Shown here one piece after another: positions 1 through 14,816 of a DNA stretch of 16,007 nucleotides. Numbering within the stretch: the stretch's first letter is position 1; every line of letters starts with the position of its first letter. Below the pieces are notes generated by a model that was given only the letters and a program-made list of their open reading frames with translations, had not been told where the DNA came from and made no database searches. This stretch comes from a virus (Duplodnaviria > Heunggongvirae > Uroviricota > Caudoviricetes): IMG/VR virus record IMGVR_UViG_2713896896_000011, positions 1 through 16,007 of that record; one strand, written 5' to 3'. The translations under genes and the position numbers were made by a program.

Positions 1-159
1 ATGCTGTTTCCTTGCATCATTGATGGGGAGTCTAAAAGACAAACTATATTTGAAGTGATTCATAACGCAATGTTTTTATGTTTAAAAATTGATTTTATTT
101 ACAAGGCGATGGGGGATTGCTGAAAAAATACTTTTACCCAGTTTCGCCAGCAGCTGGTC

Positions 160-423
160 GTGCGCTGGGTTGAAGCGGGTGAAGGCGTATCGCCAATGTG
201 CTTTGCGGAGCTGCTGGCGTTACGCACAGAGACTGACGAACTGCTGGAATGTAAACAGCGTGCGGGTGAAGCGGAATATGGTCCGCGTCGTCCTTTGTTG
301 CATGTGTTTATTAGTACGGAACTGGTGCGCGGTGAGCTCCCTCCCATGTTACCGGATAGCAGGGACGGAGATGCCAGTGAGCTGGATGGGGTGTTGTATC
401 AAACGGTAATGCGCCGGGCGTAA
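160..423 (+). CDS. hypothetical small protein; start uncertain (GTG 160 or ATG 196); possibly a 3' gene remnant
   Basis: GC-rich ORF convergent on the tail operon. Its frame is open from 124, directly after an in-frame TGA at 121-123, and has no convincing Shine-Dalgarno. The stop (421-423) lies in the loop of the hairpin at 412-432. No family recognised. Confidence 0.3.
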   Translation: MRWVEAGEGVSPMCFAELLALRTETDELLECKQRAGEAEYGPRRPLLHVFISTELVRGELPPMLPDSRDGDASELDGVLYQTVMRRA

Positions 424-440
424 AGCCCGGCGTTATTTTA
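412..440 (+). terminator. rho-independent terminator between convergent genes
   Basis: 8-bp GC stem cgccgggc (412-419) / gcccggcg (425-432), 5-nt loop, then TTATTTTA (433-440). Strong on the plus strand. The same hairpin follows the stop of the minus-strand gene 438-893, but with a weak U-tract in that direction. Confidence 0.6.
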
Positions 441-893
441 CGGCTGATATTGCCAACTGCTGACTAAAGCATACAAATGGTTTGGGGAATAGCGCCAACT
501 CTCTTTTAACTGCAGAAACTCGGCGCAAAATTCACTGCAAAACAGACGATTGCGCTGTTCTTTATTGCCAGTGATAATTCCTAAGGCTCCGCGCCAGTCG
601 TATTTTTTGCCATTATGTTTATGGAAAAAAGCTTCCACATCCTGAAAGCTAGCCTGGAGCGGTAGCATATCCCACTTATCTGACGGTAGTGGCATTATCT
701 TTCCGCGTACACCGCGATCGCGCAGTGATGCAGAGTAGCAAAGGTAATTTTTTTCACCATGTACCACTGCTAACTCGCAGTGGGAATAACTGCCGCGTGT
801 GATTTTACGGGTAAGCCAGTCAGCTAGTTGCGCAATACCCCGGTGCTCTGTTCGGCCTTTATAGCAAGCGAGCCAGACAGTGGTTTTACTCAT
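438..893 (-). CDS. hypothetical protein, last gene of the tail operon; possible Cys/His hydrolase (permuted papain-like / NlpC-P60-like), unverified
   Basis: 151-aa ORF whose ATG (893-891) overlaps the tail fibre assembly stop (892-890) as ATGA, indicating translational coupling. Normal GC. Contains His-containing SYSHCELAVVHGE and Cys-containing LFCSEFCAEF motifs; the family guess is from motif resemblance only. Confidence 0.55.
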   Translation of the reverse strand: MSKTTVWLACYKGRTEHRGIAQLADWLTRKITRGSYSHCELAVVHGEKNYLCYSASLRDRGVRGKIMPLPSDKWDMLPLQASFQDVEAFFHKHNGKKYDWRGALGIITGNKEQRNRLFCSEFCAEFLQLKESWRYSPNHLYALVSSWQYQP

Positions 894-1504
894 GGTTGCC
901 AGCCTGTGGAGTAGTCGTAGTCGAGCACCGCCTGAATATCGCCCAGAGTTTCCACCGCCGCAATATGGCGCTGGGCGTTGGCAAACAGGCGCATATCGTG
1001 AGCCATGGTGACGGATTCAAACTGGGCGGCGATTTCATTGGTTAACTCAATCAGACCGTTATTTTTAGTTTTCCACATTAAACCTGGCGGAATTTGTTTT
1101 TCGGCTCCCATTTTTGTGAGTGAGAGTTGTTGGATTCGGCTATTTGTATCACTGTGGAAGTGATAGCCGTTGAGGATGATGTAATCGGTTGTGATGTAAT
1201 CTCGTTTGGATTTTATTCTTCTTATTATATCTTCTTTTATTTCTGAAATAAATTTAAGTATTGAATCTGTATCAACTATCCATTCTCCTTTTTTCAGTTT
1301 GTGAAATTTATCTGGTGGTGGCATAGAAATGAAGGATAAATCTTCACAGTTAATCCAAGTTGGAATATTATCTCTTGCATATATCTGCCATTGCTGATCA
1401 GTTATTTCAACTAAATGTTCTACTTTGGGATAGTTGTAACGTTCTGTATCGAACCAGTCCAAAACAACAAATGTTTCAGGATCAAAACATGCATATTTTG
1501 TCAT
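890..1504 (-). CDS. tail fibre assembly protein (Tfa-like chaperone)
   Basis: 204-aa ORF immediately downstream of the tail fibre gene (6-nt gap). Size and position match Mu U / P2 G / lambda Tfa-type proteins. The N-terminal-encoding half (about 1200-1504) is strongly AT-rich, the C-terminal half has host-like GC. Confidence 0.7.
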   Translation of the reverse strand: MTKYACFDPETFVVLDWFDTERYNYPKVEHLVEITDQQWQIYARDNIPTWINCEDLSFISMPPPDKFHKLKKGEWIVDTDSILKFISEIKEDIIRRIKSKRDYITTDYIILNGYHFHSDTNSRIQQLSLTKMGAEKQIPPGLMWKTKNNGLIELTNEIAAQFESVTMAHDMRLFANAQRHIAAVETLGDIQAVLDYDYSTGWQP

Positions 1505-1510
1505 TTTTAA

Positions 1511-3169
1511 TTACCATGATATTTTTACGAAACCAGAGGCACCTTTTGTTCCGCTAGTATTGCCTAAGTTTGTTAATTCATTATTGTCATATTCAAAAGG
1601 AGGCAAATAAGATCCTCCCGCTCCTCCAGAACCATAGCCTATTGCTGGTGTCGGATGTGTCATTATTGCCTTACTTCCACCATTATCCAGATATTCTGTA
1701 ATAACAGTGCCAGCGCTCCCTCCTTTTCCATATATGGAATTTTCACCATTCTTGCCAGGATAAAATTCTGCATATAACCGTATTGCGCCAGGTGCATAAG
1801 TATTTGGATGGTCAATGAATTTTATACAAGGCTGCGTAGTGTTAAAGTGATAAATGTTATATCCCCCATGACCTCCTTTGGCAATCATATTAGAAAATGA
1901 AGAGTCACCACCATCAAAGCTTTTTTGTGTTTTCTCTGTGTTATCCGATGAATACTTTACTTGTGAAACAGGTGGATTATTCCAAAATGGACCTCCATTA
2001 CCTCCAGCCCCAACCTTTACTGAAAAATGCTGGCTTGGTTCCACGTTTAAGTAACCAACGAGCAATTCACCTGTATTGCCACCACATGCTTCATAATATG
2101 ATGATTGTGCTCCTCCGGCACCACCACCACCGCCGCCCATAACTTCCACAAATAATGTAGTTACGCCATCAGGAACTGTAAATGTTCCATTTGTAGTATA
2201 AAAACTAGTGTGAGTATGATTAGCCGGAGCTGCAGCATTAGCCTTATCCATTGCCGCCTTAACCGCACTCGGCGTGGCTGCCTCCGTCGTGCTGTTGCTG
2301 TCCGTCGCATTATTCAGCTTCACAATCCCTTTTTGCGTCAGGGTGCCATCCTGAATACCCGTAATCTGCCCCCAGGGATGCGTATGACTGCCTGCAGCTT
2401 TACCATTTGCCAGGTCATACGCCGCCTTAACCGCGCTCGGTGTCGCTGCCTCCGTCGTGCTGGTGCTATTGGTCGCGTTATTTAGCTTCACAATTCCTTT
2501 TTGAGTCAGCGTACCATCTGGAATATCAGTAATTTGACTCCAGGTATGACGATGGTTTCGTGCCTCAATCATCGCCGCTTTCACCGCTTTTGACGTAGCC
2601 GCTTTAGTTTCGTCATCACTGTCAGTGGCGTTACTCAACTGCGTAAAGCCTTTTTGCATTAACGTAGCATCAGGATGATTAGTCGAACGTGCATGTTTAT
2701 CCAGTTGTGAATCAACATAATCACGTGTTGCCAGTACAATACTGGGATCAACGGTGAGTGTTACCGCAGTCGTGTTGGAAACTTCCATAATGAGACGAAT
2801 GCAAACTTGCTTACCGCTGCCGCCGGGTAATAGCGGTTTATACGATTCTGGGAATTTACCGATAGCAATAAGTTCGCCGTCAGTATCAAAAACGCCGACT
2901 TCACGTACATACCAGCCGCCGATATTTTCGGGCAGTACAAGTTCCGCAATTAACCAGTTAGGATTACTGGGTGCAACTGTTAATGTATTTAACTCACCAC
3001 GCCATACTTCATGACGTAATTTTGCTTGACTCGCCGAGGGTTCGTAATATTGCCCACCGCCGTCTCCAACGGCCATCTTTTGCAGATGTAGTTGTTTTTT
3101 ATCCGCAAGAGCACTGGCAATTTTTGCCATCCCCCTGTCGGTCAGGAGGGTATAAAACTCATTATCCAT
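1511..3169 (-). CDS. tail fibre protein (P2 H / Mu S-like N-terminal domain, fibre repeats, Gly-rich C-terminal domain)
   Basis: 552 aa. N-terminus (MDNEFYTLLTDRGMAKIASA...MAVGDGGG) resembles the tail-collar fibre N-domain. Three tandem ~56-aa repeats (TLTQKGIVKLNNATDSNSTTEAATPSAVKAA) follow, then a C-terminal domain with poly-Gly (GGGGGGAGG) encoded by low-GC DNA. SD GGAG precedes the ATG at 3169. Confidence 0.85.
   Translation of the reverse strand: MDNEFYTLLTDRGMAKIASALADKKQLHLQKMAVGDGGGQYYEPSASQAKLRHEVWRGELNTLTVAPSNPNWLIAELVLPENIGGWYVREVGVFDTDGELIAIGKFPESYKPLLPGGSGKQVCIRLIMEVSNTTAVTLTVDPSIVLATRDYVDSQLDKHARSTNHPDATLMQKGFTQLSNATDSDDETKAATSKAVKAAMIEARNHRHTWSQITDIPDGTLTQKGIVKLNNATNSTSTTEAATPSAVKAAYDLANGKAAGSHTHPWGQITGIQDGTLTQKGIVKLNNATDSNSTTEAATPSAVKAAMDKANAAAPANHTHTSFYTTNGTFTVPDGVTTLFVEVMGGGGGGAGGAQSSYYEACGGNTGELLVGYLNVEPSQHFSVKVGAGGNGGPFWNNPPVSQVKYSSDNTEKTQKSFDGGDSSFSNMIAKGGHGGYNIYHFNTTQPCIKFIDHPNTYAPGAIRLYAEFYPGKNGENSIYGKGGSAGTVITEYLDNGGSKAIMTHPTPAIGYGSGGAGGSYLPPFEYDNNELTNLGNTSGTKGASGFVKISW
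2204..2683 (-). repeat. three tandem ~168-bp coding repeats inside the tail fibre gene (third copy degenerate)
   Basis: gccgccttaaccgcactcgg at 2253-2272 recurs as gccgccttaaccgcgctcgg at 2421-2440, a 168-bp period, matching the repeated protein motif. Confidence 0.8.
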
Positions 3170-3171
3170 AA

Positions 3172-3804
3172 TTACTCCGGGTAAATAGATGTAATTTCAA
3201 GGCTCCATTGCCCTGTTCCGTAAAAGATTGTTGTGTTTTGTTGTACTTCCCGTATCTGGAAAGGTAAAAGCGTCGTCAGTTCACCCCCATAAAGCGCACA
3301 GCTAATAACAGGGATAGCACTTTGGTTAATGATCCAGACGATTAATGCTTCCAGTTTTGAACGTGTGTTTTTATATTCATGAATGAGTTCAACTAACTCA
3401 TTGAAAAGGTTTTCATCCATGCCTTTATCCACCAGTTCTATGTCAACCTTAAAAAAATAAGCTTTCCCGCCATATTCAAACCATTCGGCAATAGTTCCAG
3501 GCAATGAGAGTATTTCCAGTACTCGCCGTACCGCCCAAACTGTTCCTTTATATTTATGTAACTCAATGGCTTGCTTAATTAACTCACGCTTCTCTTGTTC
3601 ATCAGTAGTAAATAACCAACCTTCCAGCCCCTGAACGTGAAATTGTTCTGCAAGGGCAGGTAATGCCGAAGCATCAACCAGGTCGACCAGATAAACCATC
3701 AACGCCGTCAGATCGAGTTGCGCAAAACGTTCGGCGGCGATATTTGCCAGAGTTGAAAAACGCTCATCGCTGGTAAGCGGCGGCGGTAGCAGCAATTTAT
3801 CCAT
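3172..3804 (-). CDS. baseplate protein, P2 gpI / Mu gp48-like (YmfQ / DUF2313-like)
   Basis: Lies between the J-like gene and the tail fibre. The ORF track starts at TTG 3819; the likely true start is ATG 3804-3802 (MDKLLLPP...) preceded by GGAG and overlapping the upstream stop by 8 nt. Family call is from size, position and sequence resemblance. Confidence 0.7.
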   Translation of the reverse strand: MDKLLLPPPLTSDERFSTLANIAAERFAQLDLTALMVYLVDLVDASALPALAEQFHVQGLEGWLFTTDEQEKRELIKQAIELHKYKGTVWAVRRVLEILSLPGTIAEWFEYGGKAYFFKVDIELVDKGMDENLFNELVELIHEYKNTRSKLEALIVWIINQSAIPVISCALYGGELTTLLPFQIREVQQNTTIFYGTGQWSLEITSIYPE

Positions 3805-4912
3805 CGCTGACTCCGGCAATCGTGACGTCTATTACAGTGCATTCCGCCCATTCATGCGCCTGCAAAATACGTTTTGTAGGCATGTTCAGCACAACGTCAT
3901 AGACGCCATCGACTTGTAACACTTTGATTATCTGGTTTGGCACAATGTCCTGCCCCAGATGTTTCTGCCGCTGTTGCGTCCAGAGGCTAATCGCTTTACG
4001 CGCCGCAGTCAGTGTTGTCTCCTGATCGGCGGTGGTAAACAGCGTTAGCTGCGCACGAATTTCATACGGCACCCTGAGAGCACATTTCGCACTTACTTTG
4101 TCAGTCAGCGGACGTTTTTTCTCTTTACTCACTTCTTGTTCAATTTGCGCGAGTAGCTCGGTTCCCGGCAGACCATTCAGGGTTAGCGGGTAGAGCTCGA
4201 CGCAGCCTTCTGGCAACCCTTCATCTGGCCCCAGTACTGCAACGTCAATAATTGACTGGCTAACCGAAAGTGTATGAAAGCGATATGCGCCATAGCTGCC
4301 GGCATTACTGAAGCTTTCTGGCGCCAGTTGTATACGCTGGCGTAGTGCATCATCGTTCTCTTCACCGCAACCGCCGGTTGTGGGAGTCAGATTAGTCACG
4401 TTGATATCGTAATAACCGATCCTGTCAACAAGGGCGCTAATCTGTGCAGGCTGCCAGCCATTGCCCTGTTCACCTGCTGCGAGGCTGGTGGCCGGAACGG
4501 CGATATGCAAACTCCTGGCCGGAAGCAGAACATCTTCATCGGTGGCGAACATCACGCTGTCAGAGGCACTGGCCCGCGTCCCCTGGGGAATCAGGATATT
4601 GCTGGTATACGCACTGACGACCGAAAACTGCAACGTCGTTTTTGCCGGTTGCGCAGGTAAACGGTGAACACCCACCAGCTCCCCTAAATAATCCAACATT
4701 GGTGCGCGGGAATACGCGACCAGGTTTTGTTTCGCCGCTTCCTGAATGGCGATGCGCACAAGGTTTTCACGATAGGCAAACAGGTCGATGAGTAACCGTT
4801 CGGCCTGTGCCGGATAGAGTTTTTTACCGCTGGCATCTTCGTATTGCGCAATCATCTCGCTGGTAATTTGCGCAGGATCGCGGTCAATAAAATCGGGTTC
4901 GGCTATCGCCAT
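3797..4912 (-). CDS. baseplate J-like protein (P2 gpJ / Mu gp47-like)
   Basis: 371 aa. Strong SD GGAGG 4-5 nt before the ATG at 4912. Overlaps the upstream gp25-like gene by 10 nt. Conserved position in the baseplate module. Confidence 0.8.
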   Translation of the reverse strand: MAIAEPDFIDRDPAQITSEMIAQYEDASGKKLYPAQAERLLIDLFAYRENLVRIAIQEAAKQNLVAYSRAPMLDYLGELVGVHRLPAQPAKTTLQFSVVSAYTSNILIPQGTRASASDSVMFATDEDVLLPARSLHIAVPATSLAAGEQGNGWQPAQISALVDRIGYYDINVTNLTPTTGGCGEENDDALRQRIQLAPESFSNAGSYGAYRFHTLSVSQSIIDVAVLGPDEGLPEGCVELYPLTLNGLPGTELLAQIEQEVSKEKKRPLTDKVSAKCALRVPYEIRAQLTLFTTADQETTLTAARKAISLWTQQRQKHLGQDIVPNQIIKVLQVDGVYDVVLNMPTKRILQAHEWAECTVIDVTIAGVSDG

Positions 4913-5262
4913 AACACCTCCGTTGAGTTGATTACGCCGTCAGCGGCGCGCCATTGCACACGTAACGTCAGATGTTCACCGTCGATTATCGGTGCTACCT
5001 TCAGCAACCGACATCGCGGTTCCCACTGGCGGATGGCTTCCACCGACTCCCGTACCACATGCGGGATTGCCCGCTCGATGGGGTAATCGATGTAGTGCCA
5101 CAAGTTGCTGCCAAACAGCGGTCTGTGGGGATCACTGCCGCGCGGCGTGCGCAGAATGATGTGTATTGCCTGGTGAATATCATCCAGTCCGCAGACGTAT
5201 TCTTCAGGCCGCTGCAAGGCGGGTTGCCAGTGCAGCGTTGAGGGGCGTGTTTTTGTGTTCAT
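4903..5262 (-). CDS. baseplate wedge protein, gpW / gp25-like (Mu gp46-like)
   Basis: 119 aa. Contains RPLFGSNLWHYIDYP, resembling the gp25/W signature. Located between the spike and the J-like gene. Confidence 0.75.
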   Translation of the reverse strand: MNTKTRPSTLHWQPALQRPEEYVCGLDDIHQAIHIILRTPRGSDPHRPLFGSNLWHYIDYPIERAIPHVVRESVEAIRQWEPRCRLLKVAPIIDGEHLTLRVQWRAADGVINSTEVLWR

Positions 5263-5325
5263 GTGCTTATTTTCGCCCTGAACGGACAGTGGGGATATTA
5301 AAGCGATTTAGAAAACTGATTGATT

Positions 5326-5355
5326 AAAAAGAGAAAACCCGCCATCAGGCGGGTT
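5326..5355 (-). terminator. intrinsic terminator-like hairpin immediately after the spike gene
   Basis: Stem aacccgcc (5336-5343) / ggcgggtt (5348-5355), loop atca. On the minus-strand RNA it is followed by UUCUCUUUUU (plus 5326-5335). Sits in the 98-bp gap between the spike and gp25-like genes. Confidence 0.55.
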
Positions 5356-5360
5356 AAAAG

Positions 5361-6020
5361 CTAGTGTGAATGGTGATTTGAGTTACCACCGCTATCCTGC
5401 AATGTGCCGCTGGCCTGAACGTTACCAATCACATTGACATTGCCAGTTATCGTGGCGGCGTTACCGATGCCTCCACTTCCTGCCATGCCACCCAGCCAGG
5501 TGAGTTTTTTCATTACCGTGACGTTACCAGTAAAGGTGCTCATGGGCGCATCTACCGTCACTGTCGCCGCTTTAATATCGACGGTATCGGAAGTCACGGT
5601 GACCTGTTGGGCTTTAACCTCAACGTTGGGTGATGTCAGGTTAGTATGGTCAATAACCTCAATCACGATTTTCTCAATACCGCCGTTAATCGTAAGCTGG
5701 TGTGTGCTGCGGTCATATTCAAACGCTGCGCCATCAGAAAACTGGACGTAACGTTTATCTCGCGAGGCCACAGGCGCGGTGTCAACCGTAGAATAAACGG
5801 CCCCAAGTACCACGCCATCTTCGCCGTTGTCGTCCAGCAGAACTTCCACCTGCTCACCCATATCCGGTAGCCAGTAGTCTTTATTGTCCTGGGAATTACG
5901 TTGAAGTACCGCAAGCCAGTTACTCTTCAGATTGTCGCACTCTGGCAGTGTGACTCGCACCCGAACGCTGGTTTCGTCAATATCGCTGATAATCCCCGTT
6001 TGCCGGGTTACTCCCTTCAT
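5361..6020 (-). CDS. baseplate central spike / assembly protein V-like (Mu gp45-like)
   Basis: 219 aa. N-terminus GIISDIDETSVRVRVTLPECDNLKSNWL resembles gpV. C-terminal repetitive beta-helix-like region (GNVTV...GNVNVIGNVQASG) ends in the His-rich tip NSNHHSH. SD GGAGG 4 nt upstream of the ATG. Confidence 0.8.
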   Translation of the reverse strand: MKGVTRQTGIISDIDETSVRVRVTLPECDNLKSNWLAVLQRNSQDNKDYWLPDMGEQVEVLLDDNGEDGVVLGAVYSTVDTAPVASRDKRYVQFSDGAAFEYDRSTHQLTINGGIEKIVIEVIDHTNLTSPNVEVKAQQVTVTSDTVDIKAATVTVDAPMSTFTGNVTVMKKLTWLGGMAGSGGIGNAATITGNVNVIGNVQASGTLQDSGGNSNHHSH

Positions 6021-6029
6021 AGTGCCTCC

Positions 6030-7070
6030 TTACTGGCTGGTTGCTGGCCCGCGCGAAACGTCGATTTCAGTGGTATAGCCGCTGCGCACAAAACTGTGAG
6101 TAGATTTATCAATCAGCCATTGTCCAGAAAGAATACCAAAATCAATGAGTTCGATTTTATTGCCTGCTGTCAGTTCCGGGCAGCCCATCATCCTGAGTGT
6201 TCCGGTTTGCTGATATTCGTTGTGGCTGTCGAGTGCAGCGTTGGCCTTTGCCTGTGCCGCGCCAACATCCGTCGCCCGGCTGTTGAGTTTCAACGTGTCG
6301 GCACTGGTGCCGACTCCACGGGCTGACGGTTTTTGCTGGCTGTCGTGAGTGTAGATAACCAGTTCTTTTTTCTTACTATTTTGATGCTGTACGGTGGCGT
6401 TCTTGTAGATGCGATTAATGGTGTCTTTGAAGGTAAAGTGCGAAACCTCTTTGCGGTCGATGGTTTTCACTGGCGCCAGGCAGCGTAGTGTCGGCAGATG
6501 TGAAAAAATCAGCTCTTTTGTCGTCACTTTCACGGCATAGCCATATTCGCTGGCCAGACGCTTGAGAAATCCAACATCGGTTTCGCCGTACTGTGTCACC
6601 CGGTCAATCGCCAGCGGCTCGATTTTGCCCACCAGCTTCAGACCGTGAGTTTGCGCGATACGACTGGCGATGGCCGAAAGCGTCGTTTCTTCAAAGCCCT
6701 GACTGTTACGGGTACGCAGCGCCTGATTGACGGAAGTGGCAATGCCATCAATATTTACCGTGGAAGGTGGTGCTGAAATATCAATTTTATCAATAATATA
6801 CTGACCGCAATTGAGGAGCGTCTCCCCCTGATAACCCATATGCAGCGCCAGCGTATCGCCTTTGCCGGGATACCACTCTTTTATCCAACGTCCATCGGTG
6901 TCATCCAGTGTAATGGCGATGGTATCTGACTCGTTTTTGATGCTGTCGTGGTAACTGATGCTGGTGACATAGGGCGTGATGTCATAAGTGATATCTTTAT
7001 GCCCATACCAAAGGGTAAAAATGGGCGCGAGTGTGGCAAAGACGCCACCAGATACGCTTATCTCAGCCAT
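6030..7070 (-). CDS. baseplate hub / tail protein, P2 gpD / Mu P (gp44)-like
   Basis: 346 aa, placed between tail protein X and the spike as in Mu and P2 tail modules. Assignment by size, order and N-terminal resemblance. Confidence 0.7.
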   Translation of the reverse strand: MAEISVSGGVFATLAPIFTLWYGHKDITYDITPYVTSISYHDSIKNESDTIAITLDDTDGRWIKEWYPGKGDTLALHMGYQGETLLNCGQYIIDKIDISAPPSTVNIDGIATSVNQALRTRNSQGFEETTLSAIASRIAQTHGLKLVGKIEPLAIDRVTQYGETDVGFLKRLASEYGYAVKVTTKELIFSHLPTLRCLAPVKTIDRKEVSHFTFKDTINRIYKNATVQHQNSKKKELVIYTHDSQQKPSARGVGTSADTLKLNSRATDVGAAQAKANAALDSHNEYQQTGTLRMMGCPELTAGNKIELIDFGILSGQWLIDKSTHSFVRSGYTTEIDVSRGPATSQ

Positions 7071-7270
7071 GGTGGTATCTCCGATAAGGTTTTGTTGACG
7101 GAAATGACCGGAATAATGAGTTGAATACCGGAAGGCAGTACCGGGTAAATGGCGACATGTGGATTGGCGGCGATGATGCGTTCATAAGCCAGCGCATCGC
7201 CGTAGTAATACCATGCCAGATTATCCCAGCGTTCGCCGTCGGTGGTGATATGTTCAAGGTATCGCATCAC
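7058..7270 (-). CDS. tail protein X-like (LysM-like small tail protein)
   Basis: 70 aa. WYYYGDALAYERIIAANPHV...IQLIIP matches the LysM-like pattern of P2 gpX-type proteins. Start overlaps the upstream stop as ATGA. Confidence 0.7.
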   Translation of the reverse strand: MMRYLEHITTDGERWDNLAWYYYGDALAYERIIAANPHVAIYPVLPSGIQLIIPVISVNKTLSEIPPWLR

Positions 7271-8220
7271 CAGCTCCTCGTAATGGTCGCGGCAGCAAGC
7301 TGGCTCACTGCGGGAGTGGTTTGTTGTACCGTTGTTCGTGCCTGCTCAACCAACGTTGCGGCTTTATCGAACGTCGCTTCGGCGATGTCGTTGGTAATGT
7401 CGTCGAAAAGCGCCTGAGCATGGTCAACCAGCGTGCTGGCGTCTTTGGCGCAGTCCCGGATACCTGGCATGTTACCCAGTAAAGCGTTAATCTGCGCCGA
7501 TAACGCTTTTGGGAGTCCTGCCAGCGTTTGCAGATCCATGGGCTGTTTAAACAGGGTTTCGATGGCGTCGATAGTCTTTTTCAACGACGTAATTATCTTT
7601 TCACACTTTTCTTTTAACGCTTTGGCCTCTTTAACCAGTGCTTTCACTTTTGCCACCGTTTTTTTAATATCTTCAATGGCTTGAGTCAGCTCATCGAGCA
7701 TCTCTTTGGCCTTACGCATACCTTCTTCAATGGCGTTCAATATCTGATCAAACCAGGACTCCACCATGTCTGGAAAATCGCTCGCCTTTTCGTCAATATT
7801 CGGGTCTTGGGTAGTAATTGCCGGGGGCAAGAGTGGATTTTTAGGATCGCCGGTGTACTCCTGGAGCGACATTGTTCCGCTTTGAGCAATCACATTGCCC
7901 CAGGGATCGGTGTGCTGGTGGGTGGCGGTTAGCTCCGTAATCACAAACCAGCCGCGATAATCGCCATTGCCAAACACCAGAGCCATCGCTTTGTGGGCAA
8001 GCATGGCTTCACGCAGTCGATTCAGCTCTGTTGTGGGTTGGCAAAACTGGCTGTGCAAGGAAAATTCCAGTGCCAGCATATCCAGCTTATCGCCAATAAA
8101 CTGCACGCCGGGTTTGCCTTCTATACGGGCATGTGTGGCGTAGTCCACGCCCATTGTGCTTTTAAAGCCGTCCCAGAATGTGACAACCTTAAATTCAATC
8201 TCTCCTAAAACGGCATACAT
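7267..8220 (-). CDS. DNA circulation-like tail protein (Mu N / gp43-like, short form)
   Basis: 317 aa, immediately downstream of the tape measure; start overlaps the tape measure stop as TGATG. Central Lys/Glu-rich coiled-coil segment. Assignment mainly by synteny. Confidence 0.6.
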   Translation of the reverse strand: MYAVLGEIEFKVVTFWDGFKSTMGVDYATHARIEGKPGVQFIGDKLDMLALEFSLHSQFCQPTTELNRLREAMLAHKAMALVFGNGDYRGWFVITELTATHQHTDPWGNVIAQSGTMSLQEYTGDPKNPLLPPAITTQDPNIDEKASDFPDMVESWFDQILNAIEEGMRKAKEMLDELTQAIEDIKKTVAKVKALVKEAKALKEKCEKIITSLKKTIDAIETLFKQPMDLQTLAGLPKALSAQINALLGNMPGIRDCAKDASTLVDHAQALFDDITNDIAEATFDKAATLVEQARTTVQQTTPAVSQLAAATITRSW

Positions 8221-10595
8221 CAGGCATACCCCCGGCGCTGTTGTTGCGCCATTACGTCGTTAATCATTCTTTCCAGTTCGCGTTTACTTATCGTCAACAC
8301 GTTCTGAATGTCTTTAGTGGTGTTTTGTCCGTTACTCTGCACGGTAATTTGTGGCGAAAAATTCACCTGAACTTTTCCAGAGGAACGGGAGGGGAGCGTC
8401 GCCGGTTTGGTTACAGATTTACCAGGTAAAGAGGCCGATGCGGGTTTGGCGGCTGTATTTTTTGCCGCTGGTGTCGATGGCGACGTTGTCGTTTTACTGG
8501 ATGGCGCGAGTTGTTTGCCCACAGGAGGCGTTAAAATCGCTCCGGCAACGCCTGGAACAACGGTCGTGGGGGAGATTGATGCGGTATTCGTCGTGCTTGT
8601 AACAGCCGTAGCCGATCCTTCTGTGCTAATACCCATCGTGGTTTTTAGCCAGTCCGGTAAGGCGTTTTTGACCTGATCAATAATGCCTTTCAGAGCGGGG
8701 AAAGCATTCATTATGCCGTCAACCAGACTGCCCAGAAGATTGCTGCCGAACTCGCTAAAACTTGCAGGCATCTCGACACCAAACCAATTCATCACACTGG
8801 AAAAGGCGCTGTAGAACAACTCCAGCGGCGACCAGTCGAGAATTAACCGGCAAATCCCTGCAATGCCGCCGTCAAAGGCCGTGGTGATACGTTGCCAGAT
8901 GGCGGAAAAGAATCTGGAGATAGGTTCCCAGTGGCGATAGATCAGATAAGCAGCGCCCGCAATCGCGGTGATGACCAGACCAATGGGATTCATCAATAAA
9001 ACTCTACCCAACCAGAAGACGGTCTGACCTGCCAGTTTCAATGCGCCAATCAGGCCACGGCCAAGCAGTTGCGTTAGCCATTTTGCGCCGTTATATAATG
9101 ACTTAACCGCTGATAGCATCTTACTTGCCGCGCCTGTGAGCGTCAGACTTGCCCTGACTTTCAGGAAGATATCGACCAGACGAATAAACGGCGAGGCGAT
9201 GACGTTCGCGCCCAGCTTTAAAACATTCAGTGCGCCGTTAAACAGCCAAATCGCTCCGACGATTTTCGCAATGTTTTGCACCAGCGCCGGGTGTTCACGT
9301 AGCCAGGCGCTGAACTGGCGAATCACCGGAGTAAGGCTTTGCGCCAACTCGCCAATCAGCGGCATTAATTGCAAGCCAATGCTGAGCCATAAATCATTTA
9401 ACGCCAGTTGTAACGTTTTAGTTTGTTCAATGGGTGAGGCCATCTGCACAGAAAAATCGTTGTCAATCAGATTCTTACCGCTGTCTTGCATGGCGGAGGC
9501 TTTTAACTGGCGATACTCTTCCATATTCGCCAGCACAGGTGCCAGGAATTCCACTGTTTGCGCATCGCCGAACATTTCGCCCAGATTAAATTGCGTCACC
9601 ATCGATTGCAGTGCGTTGCTGCGAGCAGATAAATCTTCAATTTGCATGGTGCGTTTGAAGGTGTCGAGGATCGCCGGATTCATCTTCTCAAGTTGCGTTT
9701 GCACGATATGAATCATGGCTTCGCTAACACCCATGCCGTTTTGCTGATGTTCAAGCAGAGAGCCTTGCAGATCGACGCCCTGGCTGACGAACCAGTTATC
9801 GGTTTTTTTCGAAAAGATGGTTTGCAGAAAGTGGTCGAAATTCTCCGCCGCCACACTGGCGCTGGCACCATTTTTCATTGCGATCTGCATTGTGGCGGTC
9901 AGTTCAGCCATACCTTCTAAACCCTGTGCGCCAGTTTTAACTGCAAATTTGTCTATCCACTGTGTTTGCCCGGCAACGGTAGGCCCACCGTTTTTGCTAA
10001 TGCCGTACATCATGTTTTGCGCGGCGTGGAAATTTTCTGGCGCAATATTCAGTCGATCATGAGTCGCGAGCGCGGCATTCGCCCATGTTTCAGCACTTTC
10101 GCGCGTGGTGGTGGCCGCTTTGGCGATCTCCGGCATATAACGGTTGAGATCCTGCATCGACGACAAATTACCTTCGATTAGCACCTGGGCTGCGTTCTGT
10201 AAGGTGGTCTGCTGCTGGTTAAAATCCATGCTCCAGTCGCGCAGATTAAGGCTGAGTGTCTCGCGGGTTGTATCATTCATCCCACCTTTGGTCGCCAAAT
10301 TGACCATGTTGTCCTGAAACTCATACGGCAACTTCCAGTCAGGGATTTCAACATTGAATACTTTGCTAAATTGCCCGGCAAATGTTTGGGTTTTCTCCAT
10401 CAGATCAGCGCGGTTTCGGCTATTTTCCTCCAGGCGGAGAGCGGAATCGGCAAGTTGCTGCGTTAGTTTGATTACTGTCGCTTGCTGAGAAGAGAGTGCT
10501 AACAATGTTCTGGCGTTGAGTGAGCCGTAACGGGCTATTGCCTGCGTCAACGTCTCATTACGCGCCTGAAGCTGGGTAATAATATCGTTGGCCAA
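8220..10595 (-). CDS. tail tape measure protein
   Basis: 791 aa with internal hydrophobic segments and a Ser/Thr/Pro-rich C-terminal tract, located between chaperone and baseplate genes. Apparent start is TTG at 10595-10593 with AAGAG upstream; there is no in-frame ATG between the upstream stop (10634-10632) and the TTG. Confidence 0.85.
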   Translation of the reverse strand: MANDIITQLQARNETLTQAIARYGSLNARTLLALSSQQATVIKLTQQLADSALRLEENSRNRADLMEKTQTFAGQFSKVFNVEIPDWKLPYEFQDNMVNLATKGGMNDTTRETLSLNLRDWSMDFNQQQTTLQNAAQVLIEGNLSSMQDLNRYMPEIAKAATTTRESAETWANAALATHDRLNIAPENFHAAQNMMYGISKNGGPTVAGQTQWIDKFAVKTGAQGLEGMAELTATMQIAMKNGASASVAAENFDHFLQTIFSKKTDNWFVSQGVDLQGSLLEHQQNGMGVSEAMIHIVQTQLEKMNPAILDTFKRTMQIEDLSARSNALQSMVTQFNLGEMFGDAQTVEFLAPVLANMEEYRQLKASAMQDSGKNLIDNDFSVQMASPIEQTKTLQLALNDLWLSIGLQLMPLIGELAQSLTPVIRQFSAWLREHPALVQNIAKIVGAIWLFNGALNVLKLGANVIASPFIRLVDIFLKVRASLTLTGAASKMLSAVKSLYNGAKWLTQLLGRGLIGALKLAGQTVFWLGRVLLMNPIGLVITAIAGAAYLIYRHWEPISRFFSAIWQRITTAFDGGIAGICRLILDWSPLELFYSAFSSVMNWFGVEMPASFSEFGSNLLGSLVDGIMNAFPALKGIIDQVKNALPDWLKTTMGISTEGSATAVTSTTNTASISPTTVVPGVAGAILTPPVGKQLAPSSKTTTSPSTPAAKNTAAKPASASLPGKSVTKPATLPSRSSGKVQVNFSPQITVQSNGQNTTKDIQNVLTISKRELERMINDVMAQQQRRGYA

Positions 10596-10684
10596 AATTG
10601 TTTCTCTTATAGATTGGTGATGGCCCGCTGGTTAGTTTTCTGAAAAATGGGCTGGGAAGAAATAAACCTGGCGGGCTTTGAAGA

Positions 10685-10709
10685 ACTCGCAGACATCAGG
10701 TCTGCGAGT
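10685..10709. other. 10-bp perfect stem-loop in the chaperone-tape measure spacer
   Basis: actcgcagac (10685-10694) / gtctgcgagt (10700-10709), 5-nt loop. The loop contains the stop codon (10698-10696) of the +1-frame extension ORF. No adjacent U-tract on either strand. Confidence 0.5.
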
Positions 10710-10846
10710 CATATTCGATTTTTATTTGAGCGCTGGCTTCATCCAGCCAGTGACTAAAGTCATCTATCGTGAGCGCGTCAATCTCACTGGGTGGAAAGCG
10801 AAACCATCTCGCCAGTAGCGCCATTGCCTGCCATAGCAGGGGGGGA
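10696..10846 (-). other. candidate programmed-frameshift extension of the tail assembly chaperone
   Basis: A C7 run on the coding strand (plus 10839-10845) lies inside the chaperone gene. The +1 frame stays open from there to TGA at 10698-10696, 88 nt beyond the 0-frame stop; the -1 frame ends at 10766-10764. Chaperone-tape measure pairs with frameshift products are a conserved feature of tailed phages. Confidence 0.3.
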
Positions 10847-11101
10847 TTCTGTAGCCACGGTAAGCATGGATTGAAATCGTTTCTGCAACGCCTGGTAATC
10901 CAGCAAATCCATTTCAGCTAAATCTTCTGGTACCAGCCCGGTCATCGCTGCCATTAGCGGTTCATCCCATTCTTCCGGCTTTTCGCTGACCCGGCGTGCA
11001 TTACGCATATCTTTGACTTTCAGGCGACGTAATTGTAGCGTGTCGATATTATTTCCTGCTGCCGACGTAAAGGGAAACTGTAAGATATAATGCTCTTTCA
11101 T
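10784..11101 (-). CDS. tail assembly chaperone (Mu gp41 / P2 gpE-like)
   Basis: 105-aa acidic protein directly upstream of the tape measure, with SD AAGGA before the ATG at 11101. Conserved position. Confidence 0.7.
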   Translation of the reverse strand: MKEHYILQFPFTSAAGNNIDTLQLRRLKVKDMRNARRVSEKPEEWDEPLMAAMTGLVPEDLAEMDLLDYQALQKRFQSMLTVATESPPAMAGNGATGEMVSLSTQ

Positions 11102-11127
11102 TTTGTATCCTTATTTATTTTGCGGAG

Positions 11128-11147
11128 TTCGGGGCCGTAGCCCCGAA
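11128..11147. other. stable stem-loop between tube and chaperone genes
   Basis: ttcggggc (11128-11135) / gccccgaa (11140-11147), loop cgta, 4 nt after the tube stop. No U-tract follows on the minus-strand RNA, so it is not a canonical terminator. Confidence 0.5.
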
Positions 11148-11151
11148 TAAC

Positions 11152-11676
11152 TTAGCCACCGATGTTATTGCGATAGGTACTTAATTGATCCACGCCGTTA
11201 ACGCGGAAAATATTCGCCATATAATCCAGTTCAAGCAGCGTTTCACCATCGACTACTTGTTTAATATAAGTGCAGCCAAAGGCGCTGCTGAATTCCGGGT
11301 TTTCATTCTGTTTAAATGTGCCCAGTGGATTTTTTTTAAACATCACGGTTAAATGTGTGACTAACGCTAATTGATTCGCTTTCCCCTGAGAGTTATAACA
11401 ATCAATACTGGAGCGACACTGTAATGCTACAGCCTGCCACGGGTTTGCCGTTTTACGCATTACGTCCTGGTAAAAGGAGTTCCATTTAATTTCCCCCTCC
11501 AGTTTATCGAAACCAGCCGGGAGTTCTATTTTACCCACCATGCCCAGTGCTTTATGTTCCTGCATAATTAAACTGACATCTGGCAATTTAATTTCTGTTG
11601 CACGGCCTAAAAGATTATTACCATCGAGATAAATATTGGCGTTGGTAATACGGTTAATTTGAATTTTTCCAGCCAT
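11152..11676 (-). CDS. tail tube protein (Mu M / P2 FII-like)
   Basis: 174 aa, immediately after the sheath gene (TAATG overlap), in the conserved sheath-tube order of contractile tails. Confidence 0.8.
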   Translation of the reverse strand: MAGKIQINRITNANIYLDGNNLLGRATEIKLPDVSLIMQEHKALGMVGKIELPAGFDKLEGEIKWNSFYQDVMRKTANPWQAVALQCRSSIDCYNSQGKANQLALVTHLTVMFKKNPLGTFKQNENPEFSSAFGCTYIKQVVDGETLLELDYMANIFRVNGVDQLSTYRNNIGG

Positions 11677-13097
11677 TAGCGATTGCTCTCCAGAGAGACT
11701 AAATATTCAGAGGTAATTTCAGTTTCAAACGTCAGACGTTCCAGCGGCGGCGGTGGGGTAAATTTATAGCTGAGCAATAAATGCCCGGCACTGAGTTCAG
11801 CCGGTGAATTTCGCGCCGGATCGTACCAGCACTCAAAGCCAAGCAGTGCGCCGTCGGCAATCAGTTTTCGGCCCCAGGTATTTACCGATTCGGTCAGCGC
11901 GTCAATCAGTGCCTGATTGATCGGCATATCAATATACTGCTGACTGAAATAACGGATTGACTCATTAATTACATCGCCTGTCCGGCGAACGTTTTCAAAG
12001 TTACGCATATGAGTCACGGTTGGCCATGCCGCTGTGCGGTTGCCCCACAGGCGCAGACCAGAACCATAACTATTGAAAATAGTGGTAATACCGTTTTCGT
12101 TGAGCTGATTCACTTCGCTTTGTGGATCATCAATCATTGCGGAAAGCGAACGTTCGATACCGGTAATACCCTGAATTTCCTGGTTTGAGTTGCTCCACCA
12201 GAAACCTTTTTCGAGGTCTACTTTGGCACGTAGCCCGGCAGCGCGCGAAGAGAGAGGTTCAAGAATTTCCTGGTTAGTGATGCCATCGTAAACTTTGACG
12301 TGTGGGTAGCATAAACGTGCACGATCAGAGCTGGTATTGAAGTTGATTGCGCCTTGCGAACCGCGTCCAGCCAATACCTGCTGGAATGTAGTCCCAATTG
12401 GGGCATCAATGTAGGTAATCGCACCGAGTTTTTCCGCTTGTGCAATCAGCTCGGTAGTCACTGATTTTTGCGTACAAAAAACGGGTGCCAGCAGAATTTT
12501 GGCGTAGAAACCATACAAGTTATAAGTGTCCTGAAGGAGCCTCATCCCCGTGCGATCGCCTGCGGTATTAACGGCCCCGATAATATCGGCTGCGGTGACC
12601 TTTGTAGGGTCAACATAGGTATAAGTCGCGTAAACCTTTGCTCCTGCCGCAATTTCAGTTCCTGTACGGGTAATAACGCCGTCAGCGGCATTAACGCTGT
12701 ATGATGTATTTTTGTATGTAGTGGAACTGATACTTGCTCTTAGCGTTACCGAACTTACCCCCGGATGAGTTAATTTAGCTTTATCGTCACTATTGAACGT
12801 AATGGTTTCATTGGTAATGTGTAGTCCATGTTTTACTGGATCCAGCACATTAATTACCACCACTGTACCGGCACCGTGATCATAAATCGCCTTCAGCGCC
12901 TGCGGGATCGTAAAGTTAGCCTGAGTCGATCCAAACTGTGCCGCGTCACTTTCAGAAAGGCACAGCGTCGGTTGGTTTACCGGGCCACAGGGAGCGGTAC
13001 CGATTAAAGCGATTACAGCAGATTTTACTGCTTTTACCGGACGCGGGCCGGTTTCAATTTCAATGGTTTCTACACCGTGCAGATAATTAGCTGCCAT
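11676..13097 (-). CDS. contractile tail sheath protein (Mu L / P2 FI-like)
   Basis: About 473 aa. The ORF track starts at TTG 13103; the more likely start is ATG 13097-13095 (MAANYLHG...) preceded by GAGGAA. Size and position are typical of sheath proteins. Confidence 0.85.
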   Translation of the reverse strand: MAANYLHGVETIEIETGPRPVKAVKSAVIALIGTAPCGPVNQPTLCLSESDAAQFGSTQANFTIPQALKAIYDHGAGTVVVINVLDPVKHGLHITNETITFNSDDKAKLTHPGVSSVTLRASISSTTYKNTSYSVNAADGVITRTGTEIAAGAKVYATYTYVDPTKVTAADIIGAVNTAGDRTGMRLLQDTYNLYGFYAKILLAPVFCTQKSVTTELIAQAEKLGAITYIDAPIGTTFQQVLAGRGSQGAINFNTSSDRARLCYPHVKVYDGITNQEILEPLSSRAAGLRAKVDLEKGFWWSNSNQEIQGITGIERSLSAMIDDPQSEVNQLNENGITTIFNSYGSGLRLWGNRTAAWPTVTHMRNFENVRRTGDVINESIRYFSQQYIDMPINQALIDALTESVNTWGRKLIADGALLGFECWYDPARNSPAELSAGHLLLSYKFTPPPPLERLTFETEITSEYLVSLESNR

Positions 13098-13284
13098 GTA
13101 CAATTTCCTCTACGTTATTTTGTTCTTCCTGGGGAATGATGAGAATCAAGTGATTTCGGGCAATCATGGTCATAACCCACTCATTGTCTTCTGGCAGATC
13201 AATTTCACTGTTCGGCCATAATAAGATTTCTTGACCGTCGGCAAGGGTGACGCCGCTTGCCGGACCGTTGTAGATATATTTCAT
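13087..13284 (-). CDS. small conserved protein upstream of the sheath (Mu gp38 / DUF2635-like)
   Basis: 65 aa. Start overlaps the upstream stop as ATGA; overlaps the sheath start. Assignment by position and size only. Confidence 0.5.
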   Translation of the reverse strand: MKYIYNGPASGVTLADGQEILLWPNSEIDLPEDNEWVMTMIARNHLILIIPQEEQNNVEEIVHGS

Positions 13285-13736
13285 TCAGTTTCCTCGTAAT
13301 TAACTTCAGTAAGCAGGGGAAGATCCGTGCTGTCCTGTTCAGCGATAAACAGCGAGCTGGTCGCCATTTCCAGGATGTAGCGGCAGAAACCGTCGCTCTC
13401 ACCCGTATTAATTTCTTTTTCAAGCCAAATAAGATGATCGCAATCAGGAGGCTGAAGGCCTCCCAATGCGCTGCGTATGTGATCAAGTGCGTTTAACGCA
13501 TCACAATTTTTGCCAACAATAACGGTGGCGGTTAAGCGGAGTATTTGCTGTTGTACAATGGCATCACTACTTTCGGGCGTGGTGAAGACAGAACCGCTAT
13601 AATTAATAATCACCGTAATCTGTTGTGTCTGTGGAATATATTTTGGGGCATCCGTAGATGAAATGAATATGTCCATTTCAGGATGCCGATCACGTAATCT
13701 GACCACGACATAATTCATTACAGATAAAACTTTCAT
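13281..13736 (-). CDS. tail terminator / tail completion protein (Mu gp37 / K-like)
   Basis: 151 aa, first gene of the structural module after the terminator hairpin, with SD AAGG upstream of the ATG at 13736. Sits where Mu-like genomes encode gp37 before the sheath. Confidence 0.5.
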   Translation of the reverse strand: MKVLSVMNYVVVRLRDRHPEMDIFISSTDAPKYIPQTQQITVIINYSGSVFTTPESSDAIVQQQILRLTATVIVGKNCDALNALDHIRSALGGLQPPDCDHLIWLEKEINTGESDGFCRYILEMATSSLFIAEQDSTDLPLLTEVNYEETE

Positions 13737-13842
13737 ATGAGGTTTACCTTATTACCGCTCACTTCGTTATCGTTGAAATGTATTCTGAAGCAGTGAGAGT
13801 GAAGAATCTTTTAATGTGATTTAGAGAAAAAATTGAATGGTT

Positions 13843-13877
13843 ATAAAAAATCCCCACACTTACGTAAAGGTGGGGAT
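13843..13877 (-). terminator. rho-independent terminator separating the lysis cassette from the tail structural genes
   Basis: Near-palindromic 28-bp hairpin (13850-13877; arms atccccac / gtggggat) 5 nt after the stop of gene 13882-14196. On the minus-strand RNA it is followed by UUUUUUAU (plus 13843-13850). Confidence 0.65.
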
Positions 13878-13881
13878 GTAT

Positions 13882-14196
13882 TTAATAACTGCCACGTTGT
13901 AATAACTCTATTTTGCTATATAAGGCATCCAGCTTTGCTTCTAATACTGCTTGTCCACGAAGATAATCCTCTCTGCGGACATAATACAGTGGAAGTTCGG
14001 CACGAAATTCGAGAAATTCTCTTTCCAGTTTCGACCAGCTTGTTTCTGATTCCCTGCGGGCATTTTCCAGGGACTCAAAACGCTCATTAAGTCTTTTTTC
14101 AATTTGCGCTAACAGCAATTTTCCGGCAGCAAACATTAATCCAACGAATGAAAGCATAAAGGAGATCACTTCCCAAAAATCGATACTGAGTTTCAT
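13882..14196 (-). CDS. membrane-anchored coiled-coil lysis accessory protein (i-spanin-like or releasin-like)
   Basis: 104 aa. N-terminal hydrophobic segment (WEVISFMLSFVGLMFAAGKLLL) followed by a charged coiled-coil region. SD GAGGGG 4 nt before the ATG. Immediately downstream of the lytic enzyme. Confidence 0.5.
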   Translation of the reverse strand: MKLSIDFWEVISFMLSFVGLMFAAGKLLLAQIEKRLNERFESLENARRESETSWSKLEREFLEFRAELPLYYVRREDYLRGQAVLEAKLDALYSKIELLQRGSY

Positions 14197-14208
14197 CGGC
14201 CCCTCTGA

Positions 14209-14814
14209 TTAGTGAAGACAGCTTGCCTGTCCCCAGAGTAAGTAGCGGGCGGCGTGTTGATAGAGAATCATCTTCGGATAGTGACGATTTTCTCGCCAGT
14301 TTGCGGCGCTGCGCCCGGCGTTGACTTGCTCAACATGACCAAACCAGATGGCGGCATTTAACCCTTTTGTTGTCGCCAGTTTTTTATCCCGGTTAATCCA
14401 ACCCTGACCACCGTTATAGGCGCTTAGAGTAAACGCCATACGTTGACAATCATTTTTTGCAGAGATGTTGTTCCATAAATGCTGGTCGTACTGTACCAAC
14501 GCCCGGATTGCCCAGGTTGGGTTATACGGTTTGTTTTCATGTAGCTGTGGATACAGTTGGCTTATCCATGTCGCTGTGGCAGGCATAAATTGCGCCATAC
14601 CTTGTGCGCCAACGGGGGAACGTACCATTGGCTGCCAGGCGGACTCCTGGTGTAATTGCCCGGCAAAGTCAGCCACCGGAGCGTTCAGTCCCCAGACTTC
14701 TCGGGCGGTACGAATCAATTCATTTCTCCATGCCAGAGAGGCTTGTGGTGGTTCAGACGCGTTAAGCGGGAAAAGAACGAAAATAATCATAGGCGCGATA
14801 TATTTTAGCCACAT
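14209..14814 (-). CDS. lytic transglycosylase-type endolysin (SLT domain) with N-terminal signal or signal-anchor
   Basis: SLT-like motifs (QLHQESAWQP with the catalytic Glu context, GAQGMAQFMPATA, AYNGG). The likely start is ATG 14814-14812 (MWLKYIAPMIIFVLFPLNA...), abutting the holin-like stop in TAGTGATG. The ORF track's longer start at 14913 overlaps the upstream gene and is probably not used. Confidence 0.75.
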   Translation of the reverse strand: MWLKYIAPMIIFVLFPLNASEPPQASLAWRNELIRTAREVWGLNAPVADFAGQLHQESAWQPMVRSPVGAQGMAQFMPATATWISQLYPQLHENKPYNPTWAIRALVQYDQHLWNNISAKNDCQRMAFTLSAYNGGQGWINRDKKLATTKGLNAAIWFGHVEQVNAGRSAANWRENRHYPKMILYQHAARYLLWGQASCLH

Positions 14815-14816
14815 CA

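Follow-up and report, generated by a model that had tools for sequence, protein, structure and literature searches.

A predicted permuted NlpC/P60 cysteine enzyme encoded directly behind a putative tail-fibre assembly gene in a tail-only phage cluster

In the permuted NlpC/P60 superfamily a Cys/His dyad forms an acyl-thioester that is resolved by water or by an acceptor, and the relatives with known activity have, in most cases, fatty-acyl linkages as their targets instead of ordinary peptide bonds (PMC3142127, PMC13559823, PMC12994826). The described members nearest to the protein studied here are Escherichia coli YiiX (structure 2if6) and Bacillus cereus BcPPNE (3kw0, labelled 'cysteine peptidase'), both of PF05708 (MEROPS C92). 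The crystal structure of YiiX contains a bound fatty acid and shows a hydrophobic S1 pocket; the paper on the two structures names His49, Glu64, Tyr115 and Cys128 as the catalytic residues of YiiX, and the function of a fatty-acyl amidase is a proposal for YiiX and BcPPNE themselves (PMC3142127). Here we analyse a gene at 438..893, minus strand, of IMG/VR virus record IMGVR_UViG_2713896896_000011 (Caudoviricetes), of which we took positions 1 to 16,007; this whole stretch of 16,007 nucleotides is called the window below. The 151-residue product, referred to here as the enzyme, is very probably a Cys/His enzyme of the permuted NlpC/P60 superfamily, and its gene lies immediately behind that of a DUF4376 protein with a presumed role in tail-fibre assembly.

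Several other members of the superfamily are useful for comparison. Staphylococcus aureus LnsA, the lipoprotein N-acyltransferase subunit, is like the enzyme of the permuted type; it N-acylates lipoproteins, depends on its Cys/His dyad, forms an acyl-thioester and works with a partner protein, LnsB (PMC13559823). LnsA has a membrane site and a membrane partner, whereas the partner of the phage enzyme, if there is one, would be the soluble DUF4376 protein, a distinction that we draw from the description of LnsA. The type VI secretion system effectors Tox-Act1, a phospholipase (PMC12994826), and TseH, which has phospholipase activity, share the permuted NlpC/P60 core, but they are secreted toxins with immunity partners and secretion contexts, and the phage gene has no immunity-like gene beside it. 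The LRAT/PLAAT (H-RAS-like suppressor) acyltransferases and the picornavirus 2A H-box/NC proteins form another branch with much lower structural similarity, and are eukaryotic or of RNA viruses. A virus-encoded protein of the YaeF/YiiX family has been described in vaccinia virus, G6R (PMC3142127); the likeness is one of description, and G6R belongs to a eukaryotic virus and has no tail context. Our literature searches found no paper on the phage family, on its coupling to fibre genes, or on YaeF/YiiX proteins in a phage context. The fold family is already on record, and at least one relative has received the YaeF/YiiX name from automated annotation; what is new is the catalytic correspondence, the departure from YiiX in third residue and localisation, the near-universal pairing with DUF4376, and the inheritance of the two as a block.

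Fold and predicted catalytic residues of the enzyme

Searches with the single sequence return little: Pfam gave no match up to E = 1, NCBIfam gave none, and the best hit among PDB sequences was non-significant (E = 1.6). The PDB match became significant only once a family profile replaced the single sequence. A search of 5.8 billion proteins yielded 91 relatives, mostly unnamed or labelled enoyl-CoA hydratase, and an alignment of 54 family members served as the basis of both the profile and an AlphaFold2 model. The profile matched 3kw0 with E = 3.6e-4 and 2if6 with E = 0.88, in both cases aligning the YSH, GKxYD and CSEF motifs. With hhalign, the family matched YiiX alone at E = 0.0038 and an alignment of 25 YiiX sequences at 83.8% probability and E = 7.9e-6, pairing His38 with His49, Tyr98 with Tyr115 and Cys119 with Cys128 (enzyme and YiiX, respectively). 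The protein corresponds to the minimal core of a papain-like fold (mean predicted local distance difference test score of the model 83.7, predicted template modelling score 0.82), and Foldseek against viral models (BFVD) retrieved uncharacterised phage proteins together with two named YaeF/YiiX (C92 family) or cysteine peptidase. The initial annotation, made from motif resemblance, had guessed at a permuted papain-like hydrolase; the profile matches to YiiX and 3kw0 and the invariant Cys and His bear this out. The profile search that it proposed gave a significant match, to permuted NlpC/P60 enzymes; no unrelated non-enzymatic fold came up, and no homologue was seen to lose the Cys or the His.

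His38, in the YSH motif (codon 780..782, minus strand), is the predicted general base and aligns with His49 of YiiX; the motif itself aligns with YSH of 3kw0 and 2if6. The predicted nucleophile, Cys119 of the FCSE motif (537..539, minus strand), aligns with Cys128 of YiiX; it begins helix 119-126, as assigned by DSSP on the AlphaFold2 model, and the CSEF around it aligns with CSEF of 3kw0 and YCSE of YiiX. Tyr98 (600..602, minus strand) lies in a GKKYD motif that corresponds to GKPYD of YiiX and aligns with Tyr115, the tyrosine being the conserved fourth catalytic residue of NlpC/P60 enzymes (PMC3142127). The initial annotation had proposed a Cys/His pair within two motifs, SHCELAVVHGE (residues 37-47) and LFCSEFCAEF (residues 117-126). 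Only His38 and Cys119 of the two histidines and two cysteines in these motifs align with catalytic residues, so that the pair stands in this form; His45 varies among homologues, and Cys123 is 92% conserved.

Conservation was assessed on 129 distinct sequences, 39-95% identical, from the 157 loci of the synteny set described below. His38, Glu40, Ser56, Tyr98 and Asp99 are invariant in all 129, and Cys119 is present in every one of the 128 that have a residue at that position. In the 54-sequence alignment the invariant positions are Tyr36, Ser37, His38, Cys39, Glu40, Ser56, Val62, Arg63, Lys65, Trp74, Tyr98, Cys119, Ser120 and Pro137. The gene is under strong purifying selection: compared with the E. 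coli orthologues, the ratio of non-synonymous to synonymous substitution rates (dN/dS) is 0.046-0.055, with dS about 0.63. We also considered a four-cysteine metal site made of Cys39, Cys52, Cys119 and Cys123 and set it aside: by strand geometry Cys39 faces away from His38, and neither Cys52 nor Cys123 is constant across the wider family.

The enzyme and YiiX/BcPPNE have the catalytic order His, Tyr, Cys in common, as well as the YSH, GKxYD and (F/Y)CSE motifs. They differ in several respects. The enzyme is about 35 residues shorter than mature YiiX and is encoded in phage tail modules, whereas YiiX is the product of a chromosomal envelope gene. YiiX and BcPPNE are exported, but the enzyme has no signal peptide, lipobox or membrane segment, residues 6-11 forming strand 1 in the model. 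A lipoprotein reading of the 'WLAC' at residues 7-10 was discarded, as these residues belong to strand 1, no leader precedes them and Cys10 is not a conserved residue.

The acidic third residue is the other point of departure. The equivalent of Glu64 in YiiX and BcPPNE is not conserved at the aligned position, where the enzyme has a serine and, elsewhere, its own invariant Glu40. The expected site is Ser54-Ala55-Ser56 (codons at 726..734, minus strand), with Glu64 falling opposite Ser54 in the profile-profile alignment, opposite Tyr53 in the alignment with YiiX alone, and opposite Cys52 or Ala55 in the profile matches to PDB entries. Ser54 is 98% and Ser56 100% conserved among the 129 distinct sequences. 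The register of the predicted hairpin of strands 38-45 and 49-56 would set the invariant Ser56 opposite His38, and Ser56, Ser54 or Glu40 may stand in for the acidic residue; Glu40, two residues past His38 on the same strand, is a family-specific candidate. The library model for the YiiX family fares poorly as well: only one of the 54 family members matches PF05708 (Peptidase_C92), at E = 0.073, below the Pfam threshold. Since the export signal and the acidic residue are missing and PF05708 fails to recognise the family, we regard the family as a divergent YaeF/YiiX-like branch found in phages and do not count it as a plain member.

Two other assignments can be set aside. The label enoyl-CoA hydratase or carnitine racemase-like protein, carried by PHROG 1128 and many GenBank records, finds no crotonase-family match in Pfam up to E = 1 and none in NCBIfam, and the fold is papain-like. 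As an enzyme it has nothing in its favour other than an inherited database label, and these results refute it as nearly completely as such searches can. A site-specific invertase of the Gin/Cin/Pin type is rejected because Pfam finds no resolvase or serine recombinase domain and the fold is papain-like; the statement of the initial annotation that the gene, placed like the invertase genes behind the fibres of Mu, P1 or e14, does not encode one agrees with the absence of such a match up to E = 1.

Pairing with the DUF4376 gene

The open reading frame (ORF) of the enzyme begins at its first in-frame start codon, and this ATG overlaps the TGA stop of the 204-residue ORF at 890..1504 (minus strand) as ATGA at 890..893, where the plus strand reads tcat. 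The overlap had been pointed out in the initial annotation, and the bases agree. Translational coupling of the two genes is probable. Tight gene spacing is usual within the tail operon of the window, so it is the conservation of the junction and not the single overlap here that counts. To follow it, we assembled loci from two scans, a degenerate-pattern scan of IMG/VR, with at least 536 loci encoding the enzyme, and a scan of one genome per GTDB species, with 182. The loci come from Enterobacteriaceae, Pasteurellaceae, Neisseriaceae and Moraxellaceae, and the genera whose prophages carry the family include Haemophilus, Pasteurella, Neisseria, Moraxella, Salmonella and Escherichia.

In a synteny set of 157 loci from IMG/VR and GTDB genomes, the start of the enzyme gene overlaps the upstream stop by 4 nucleotides in 76, by 8 in 23 and by 11 in 12, and lies within about 4 nucleotides of it in 21 further loci. 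Nearly all upstream ORFs (144/148) fall into one BLAST cluster with the DUF4376 protein of the window. The arrangement recurs in phage SuMu, where the gene order is gp50 (the DUF4376 protein), gp51 (the enzyme), com. In Pasteurella phage Pm86 the enzyme gene follows, with a 4-nucleotide overlap, a 200-residue ORF in which Pfam finds no DUF4376 match. One metagenomic contig has the enzyme behind a DUF4376 gene that is itself preceded by a gene with a weak Phage_Tail_Tip match, that is, a tail tip of the siphovirus type.

A profile search of 1.84 billion representative proteins returned 4,548 clusters at E <= 0.001, 1,952 of them at E <= 1e-10. Among the best 150 of the 4,548 clusters nearly all proteins are single-domain, of about 130-230 residues, and no domain fusion was seen. 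Three separate copies per genome occur in Bergeriella denitrificans (loci L098, L099 and L130) and in Spirabiliibacterium pneumoniae (L091, L105 and L113), presumably one per prophage. A 6.7-kb contig binned into a 'Bacillota bacterium' metagenome-assembled genome (L084, JAEZCC010000043.1) encodes an enzyme 95% and a DUF4376 protein about 90% identical to those of the window, and is probably a mis-binned Escherichia contig. In three loci (L170, 1399..2356; L172, 5001..6776; L165, 3935..5411) the enzyme gene lies before or near genes for a GH108-like lysozyme, a holin or a 'lysis protein', and in all three it has a stop/start overlap with a short, unrelated upstream ORF of 114-152 residues.

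The upstream protein of the window matches DUF4376 (PF14301, E = 7.5e-13) and PHROG tail families. It is preceded by the tail-fibre gene at 1511..3169 (minus strand), which opens the trio of fibre, assembly and enzyme genes; its 552-residue product has Phage_tail_fib, three Phage_fiber_2 repeats and Gly_rich_2. The initial annotation had called the gene between them that of a fibre chaperone, tfa. The Pfam scan supports this in part: the protein of the window matches DUF4376 and not the classical Caudo_TAP model, whereas 235-residue variants of the gene in Enterobacter, Salmonella and Escherichia albertii carry Caudo_TAP_N/Caudo_TAP ahead of DUF4376. It is reasonable, on these domain matches, to regard the DUF4376 protein as a putative fibre chaperone.

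The enzyme gene is inherited together with one end of this neighbour. We compared loci L005-L010, in which the enzyme is 91-93% identical to that of the window. The upstream protein is 15-33% identical to its window counterpart over residues 1-60, 46-50% over residues 61-130 and 91-95% over residues 131-204, so the conserved block consists of the enzyme gene and the C-terminal 75 or so residues of the DUF4376 protein (about 890..1114). G+C content in the window follows the same division. It dips to 31-40% at about 1050..2100, over the N-terminal two-thirds of the DUF4376 gene and the 3' part of the fibre gene, against about 50% on either side; at 46-53%, the enzyme gene and the DUF4376 gene's 3' end resemble the backbone. 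The low-G+C span is also where elements that are otherwise nearly identical diverge. The swapped host-range cassette is therefore the fibre tip plus the N-terminal part of the DUF4376 assembly protein, with one boundary within the DUF4376 gene, at about residue 130, and the other within the fibre gene. That the enzyme travels with the conserved DUF4376 C-terminus and not with the fibre tip argues against a receptor-matched function, and its linkage to the backbone argues against a recently acquired cargo gene. Inheritance as a block is compatible with a partnership with the DUF4376 domain, without proving one.

No sigma-70-like promoter site was found on the minus strand from 893 to 1661. Having no promoter-like site of its own and overlapping the upstream stop, the enzyme gene is likely to be expressed with the fibre genes, its product being made late together with the fibre and the DUF4376 protein; the argument comes from the sequence of the operon. 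At the other end, 5 bases downstream of the enzyme stop codon, a scan for terminator-like structures found a G+C-rich hairpin between convergent genes at 411..433 (9 pairs, 8 of them G-C; fold of the minus-strand RNA -22.8 kcal/mol, z = -3.9), with a good T-run on the plus strand only. Its position supports the view that it marks the end of the tail operon. Beyond it lies a convergent fragment of an RlaP-family nucleotidyltransferase gene, the last 87 codons, at 160..423 (plus strand); hairpin and fragment together support the enzyme gene as the last of its operon, as had been proposed.

The tail-only cluster of the window

The enzyme gene closes a cluster that fills 438..16007 of the window. 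Its order begins with a Mor-family activator, a holin, an SLT transglycosylase, a 104-residue ORF and Gp37; continues with the sheath, the tube, the tail assembly chaperone and the tape measure; and ends with gpU, gpD, V, W, J and I, followed by the fibre, the DUF4376 protein and the enzyme. The same 15.8-kb cluster is found in E. coli S10 (NZ_CP010229.1, 1221023..1236782; loci L183 and L001 were compared), where it lies between lysC and RlaP/slipin/yjbD/rluF. It has a complete set of contractile-tail genes and none for capsid, terminase, integrase or replication, and may be a tail-only element akin to an R-type tailocin or else the remnant of a prophage that has no head. Our literature searches for a description of this cluster turned up nothing relevant; a possible counterpart is the defective prophage 'Def4' (STM4196-STM4219) in Salmonella Typhimurium LT2. 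The enzyme gene has been kept under purifying selection in this head-less tail cluster. As the DUF4376 protein of the window is 100% identical to one from Escherichia albertii, the window itself probably comes from that species.

Two features of the window lie apart from the fibre end. The gpU-like tail protein (7267..8220, minus strand; 317 residues) has its gpU domain in residues 6-123 only, and the remaining 190 or so residues, with weak coiled-coil-type matches, make up an unusually long C-terminal extension. At 1..437, the E. coli counterpart has the full 263-residue RlaP-family gene and then a slipin (Band_7) gene; the match to E. coli begins at window base 212 in a near-identity search and at about base 95 in a more sensitive one. 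Bases 1-94, which are AT-rich, have no match, and this points to the breakpoint of a deletion or an insertion.

Proposed role and alternative explanations

By analogy with the family, His38 would deprotonate Cys119, which would attack the carbonyl of an acyl-amide or acyl-ester bond and form a thioester acyl-enzyme, with Tyr98 stabilising the oxyanion; the acyl group would then be passed to water, making the protein a hydrolase, or to an acceptor, making it an acyltransferase. Hydrolysis or transfer of an acyl group through a thioester is thus the probable chemistry. The acyl group would most likely be a fatty acyl chain, as it is in the characterised relatives, although on this analogy we put a fatty-acyl substrate at an even chance. 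The enzyme would appear late, along with the fibre and the DUF4376 protein, and would remain in the cytoplasm of the cell that produces it, acting there on some part of the fibre/assembly complex or on an acyl substrate that the fibre needs in order to function; this role is the weakest step. The reading that we prefer overall, of an active, cytoplasmic, stand-alone thiol enzyme of the YaeF/YiiX branch that serves the DUF4376 end of the fibre module as its catalytic accessory, we hold at a little under even chances. A functional partnership with the DUF4376 protein or the fibre is, taken by itself, a tentative proposition and rather doubtful. The most specific version, a dedicated acyltransferase or deacylase that acylates or deacylates the fibre or the DUF4376 protein via the Cys119 thioester, appears improbable. 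Among the functions offered in the initial annotation (cargo enzyme, fibre-associated hydrolase, immunity-type function), a fibre-associated one fits best; a cargo role is least favoured because the gene is part of the conserved backbone and lacks its own promoter-like site. The gene would be neither receptor-specific nor a gene of lysogenic conversion.

A number of observations count against the catalytic accessory that we propose, including the position of Glu64 and the PF05708 result given above. Distant members, about 30-40% identical, are not found beside DUF4376, and Pfam finds no DUF4376 in the short ORFs upstream of them. Three of these distant members lie at the far end of the tail module, behind unrelated ORFs of 112-152 residues and near lysis genes. 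In the Ralstonia jumbo phage RP12 the enzyme gene is solitary, and one metagenomic member adjoins a ribonucleotide reductase gene. Inheritance with the DUF4376 C-terminus could merely mark a recombination boundary. Finally, gp51 goes unmentioned in the main text of the paper on the genome and proteome of SuMu.

The distant members also bear on a second explanation, in which the enzyme acts on the acyl chains of envelope lipids (phospholipid, lipoprotein or lipopolysaccharide) and not on the fibre or DUF4376 protein, either late in the producing cell, in lysis or release, or carried by the tail against the outer membrane of the target. One of them overlaps a GH108-like gene, another lies two genes before a holin, and the member in Pseudomonas phage pAN is two genes before a 'lysis protein'; moreover, the characterised permuted NlpC/P60 enzymes act on lipids (Tox-Act1, TseH and LnsA, with YiiX binding a fatty acid). 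Set against this, the protein has no signal peptide, lipobox or membrane segment, in contrast to the exported YiiX and BcPPNE, its N-terminus is already the first beta-strand, the lysis genes of the window are 13 kb off at the other end of the cluster, and the conserved tight coupling is with DUF4376 and not with lysis genes. We judge an envelope-lipid enzyme unlikely on balance. Location also prompts the idea of a cargo gene, or moron, unrelated to tails and sitting in a common insertion spot behind the fibre genes, with a benefit to the host such as exclusion or surface modification. The gene is indeed terminal, and its neighbours are variable non-phage genes (in E. coli RlaP and slipin, in Enterobacter an SBF-like transporter); in Haemophilus parasuis, a genome-wide association study counts the family with the accessory genes that are associated with clinical isolates; and one P2-like contig has the enzyme between the fibre genes and the sheath gene, which we take to be the spot where P2 carries Z/fun. 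A cargo gene would, however, hardly be expected to lack a promoter-like site of its own, to keep a stop/start overlap across 39-95% identity, or to match the backbone in G+C content when the foreign-looking part is the neighbouring fibre-tip cassette. The enzyme gene is also present in the large phage RP12, and without co-variation with the fibre tip a receptor-matched exclusion function is unlikely. The cargo explanation is accordingly improbable in our view.

Two further explanations turn on whether and on what the dyad works. An isopeptidase that strips a ubiquitin-like or other tag put on tail-tip proteins by a host defence would be well placed beside the fibre genes. Yet a tail-only cluster that resides in the host retains the gene, we found no annotation that points to anti-defence, and the PADLOC scan of the enzyme gave no match up to E = 1 in a library of defence, not counter-defence, proteins; we consider such a function highly improbable. 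That the protein might be non-catalytic, a second chaperone or structural adaptor with a papain-like fold, is suggested by the unconserved acidic position and by the reduction to a minimal fold core. It is scarcely credible given that His38, Tyr98 and Cys119 with their flanking YSH and FCSE motifs are strictly conserved across the 129 distinct sequences, and that a third polar residue is dispensable in some permuted members of the family (PMC3142127).

Replacing the label 'enoyl-CoA hydratase' would have a practical consequence: comparative genomics, for example the H. parasuis association study, would be rid of a false metabolic or virulence signal. The catalytic accessory of the fibre module that we favour has wider ones. 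The fixed place of the gene behind a fibre assembly gene, together with strong purifying selection even in a head-less cluster, suggests an enzymatic step in the assembly or function of the fibre. To our knowledge, enzymatic lipid modification has not been described as a step of fibre building for any tailed phage; if acylation within the fibre module holds true, it would be such a step in building the fibres of phages and tailocins. Pairs of fibre and chaperone are what is swapped when phages and tailocins are re-targeted, and an overlooked third component could decide whether engineered fibres assemble.

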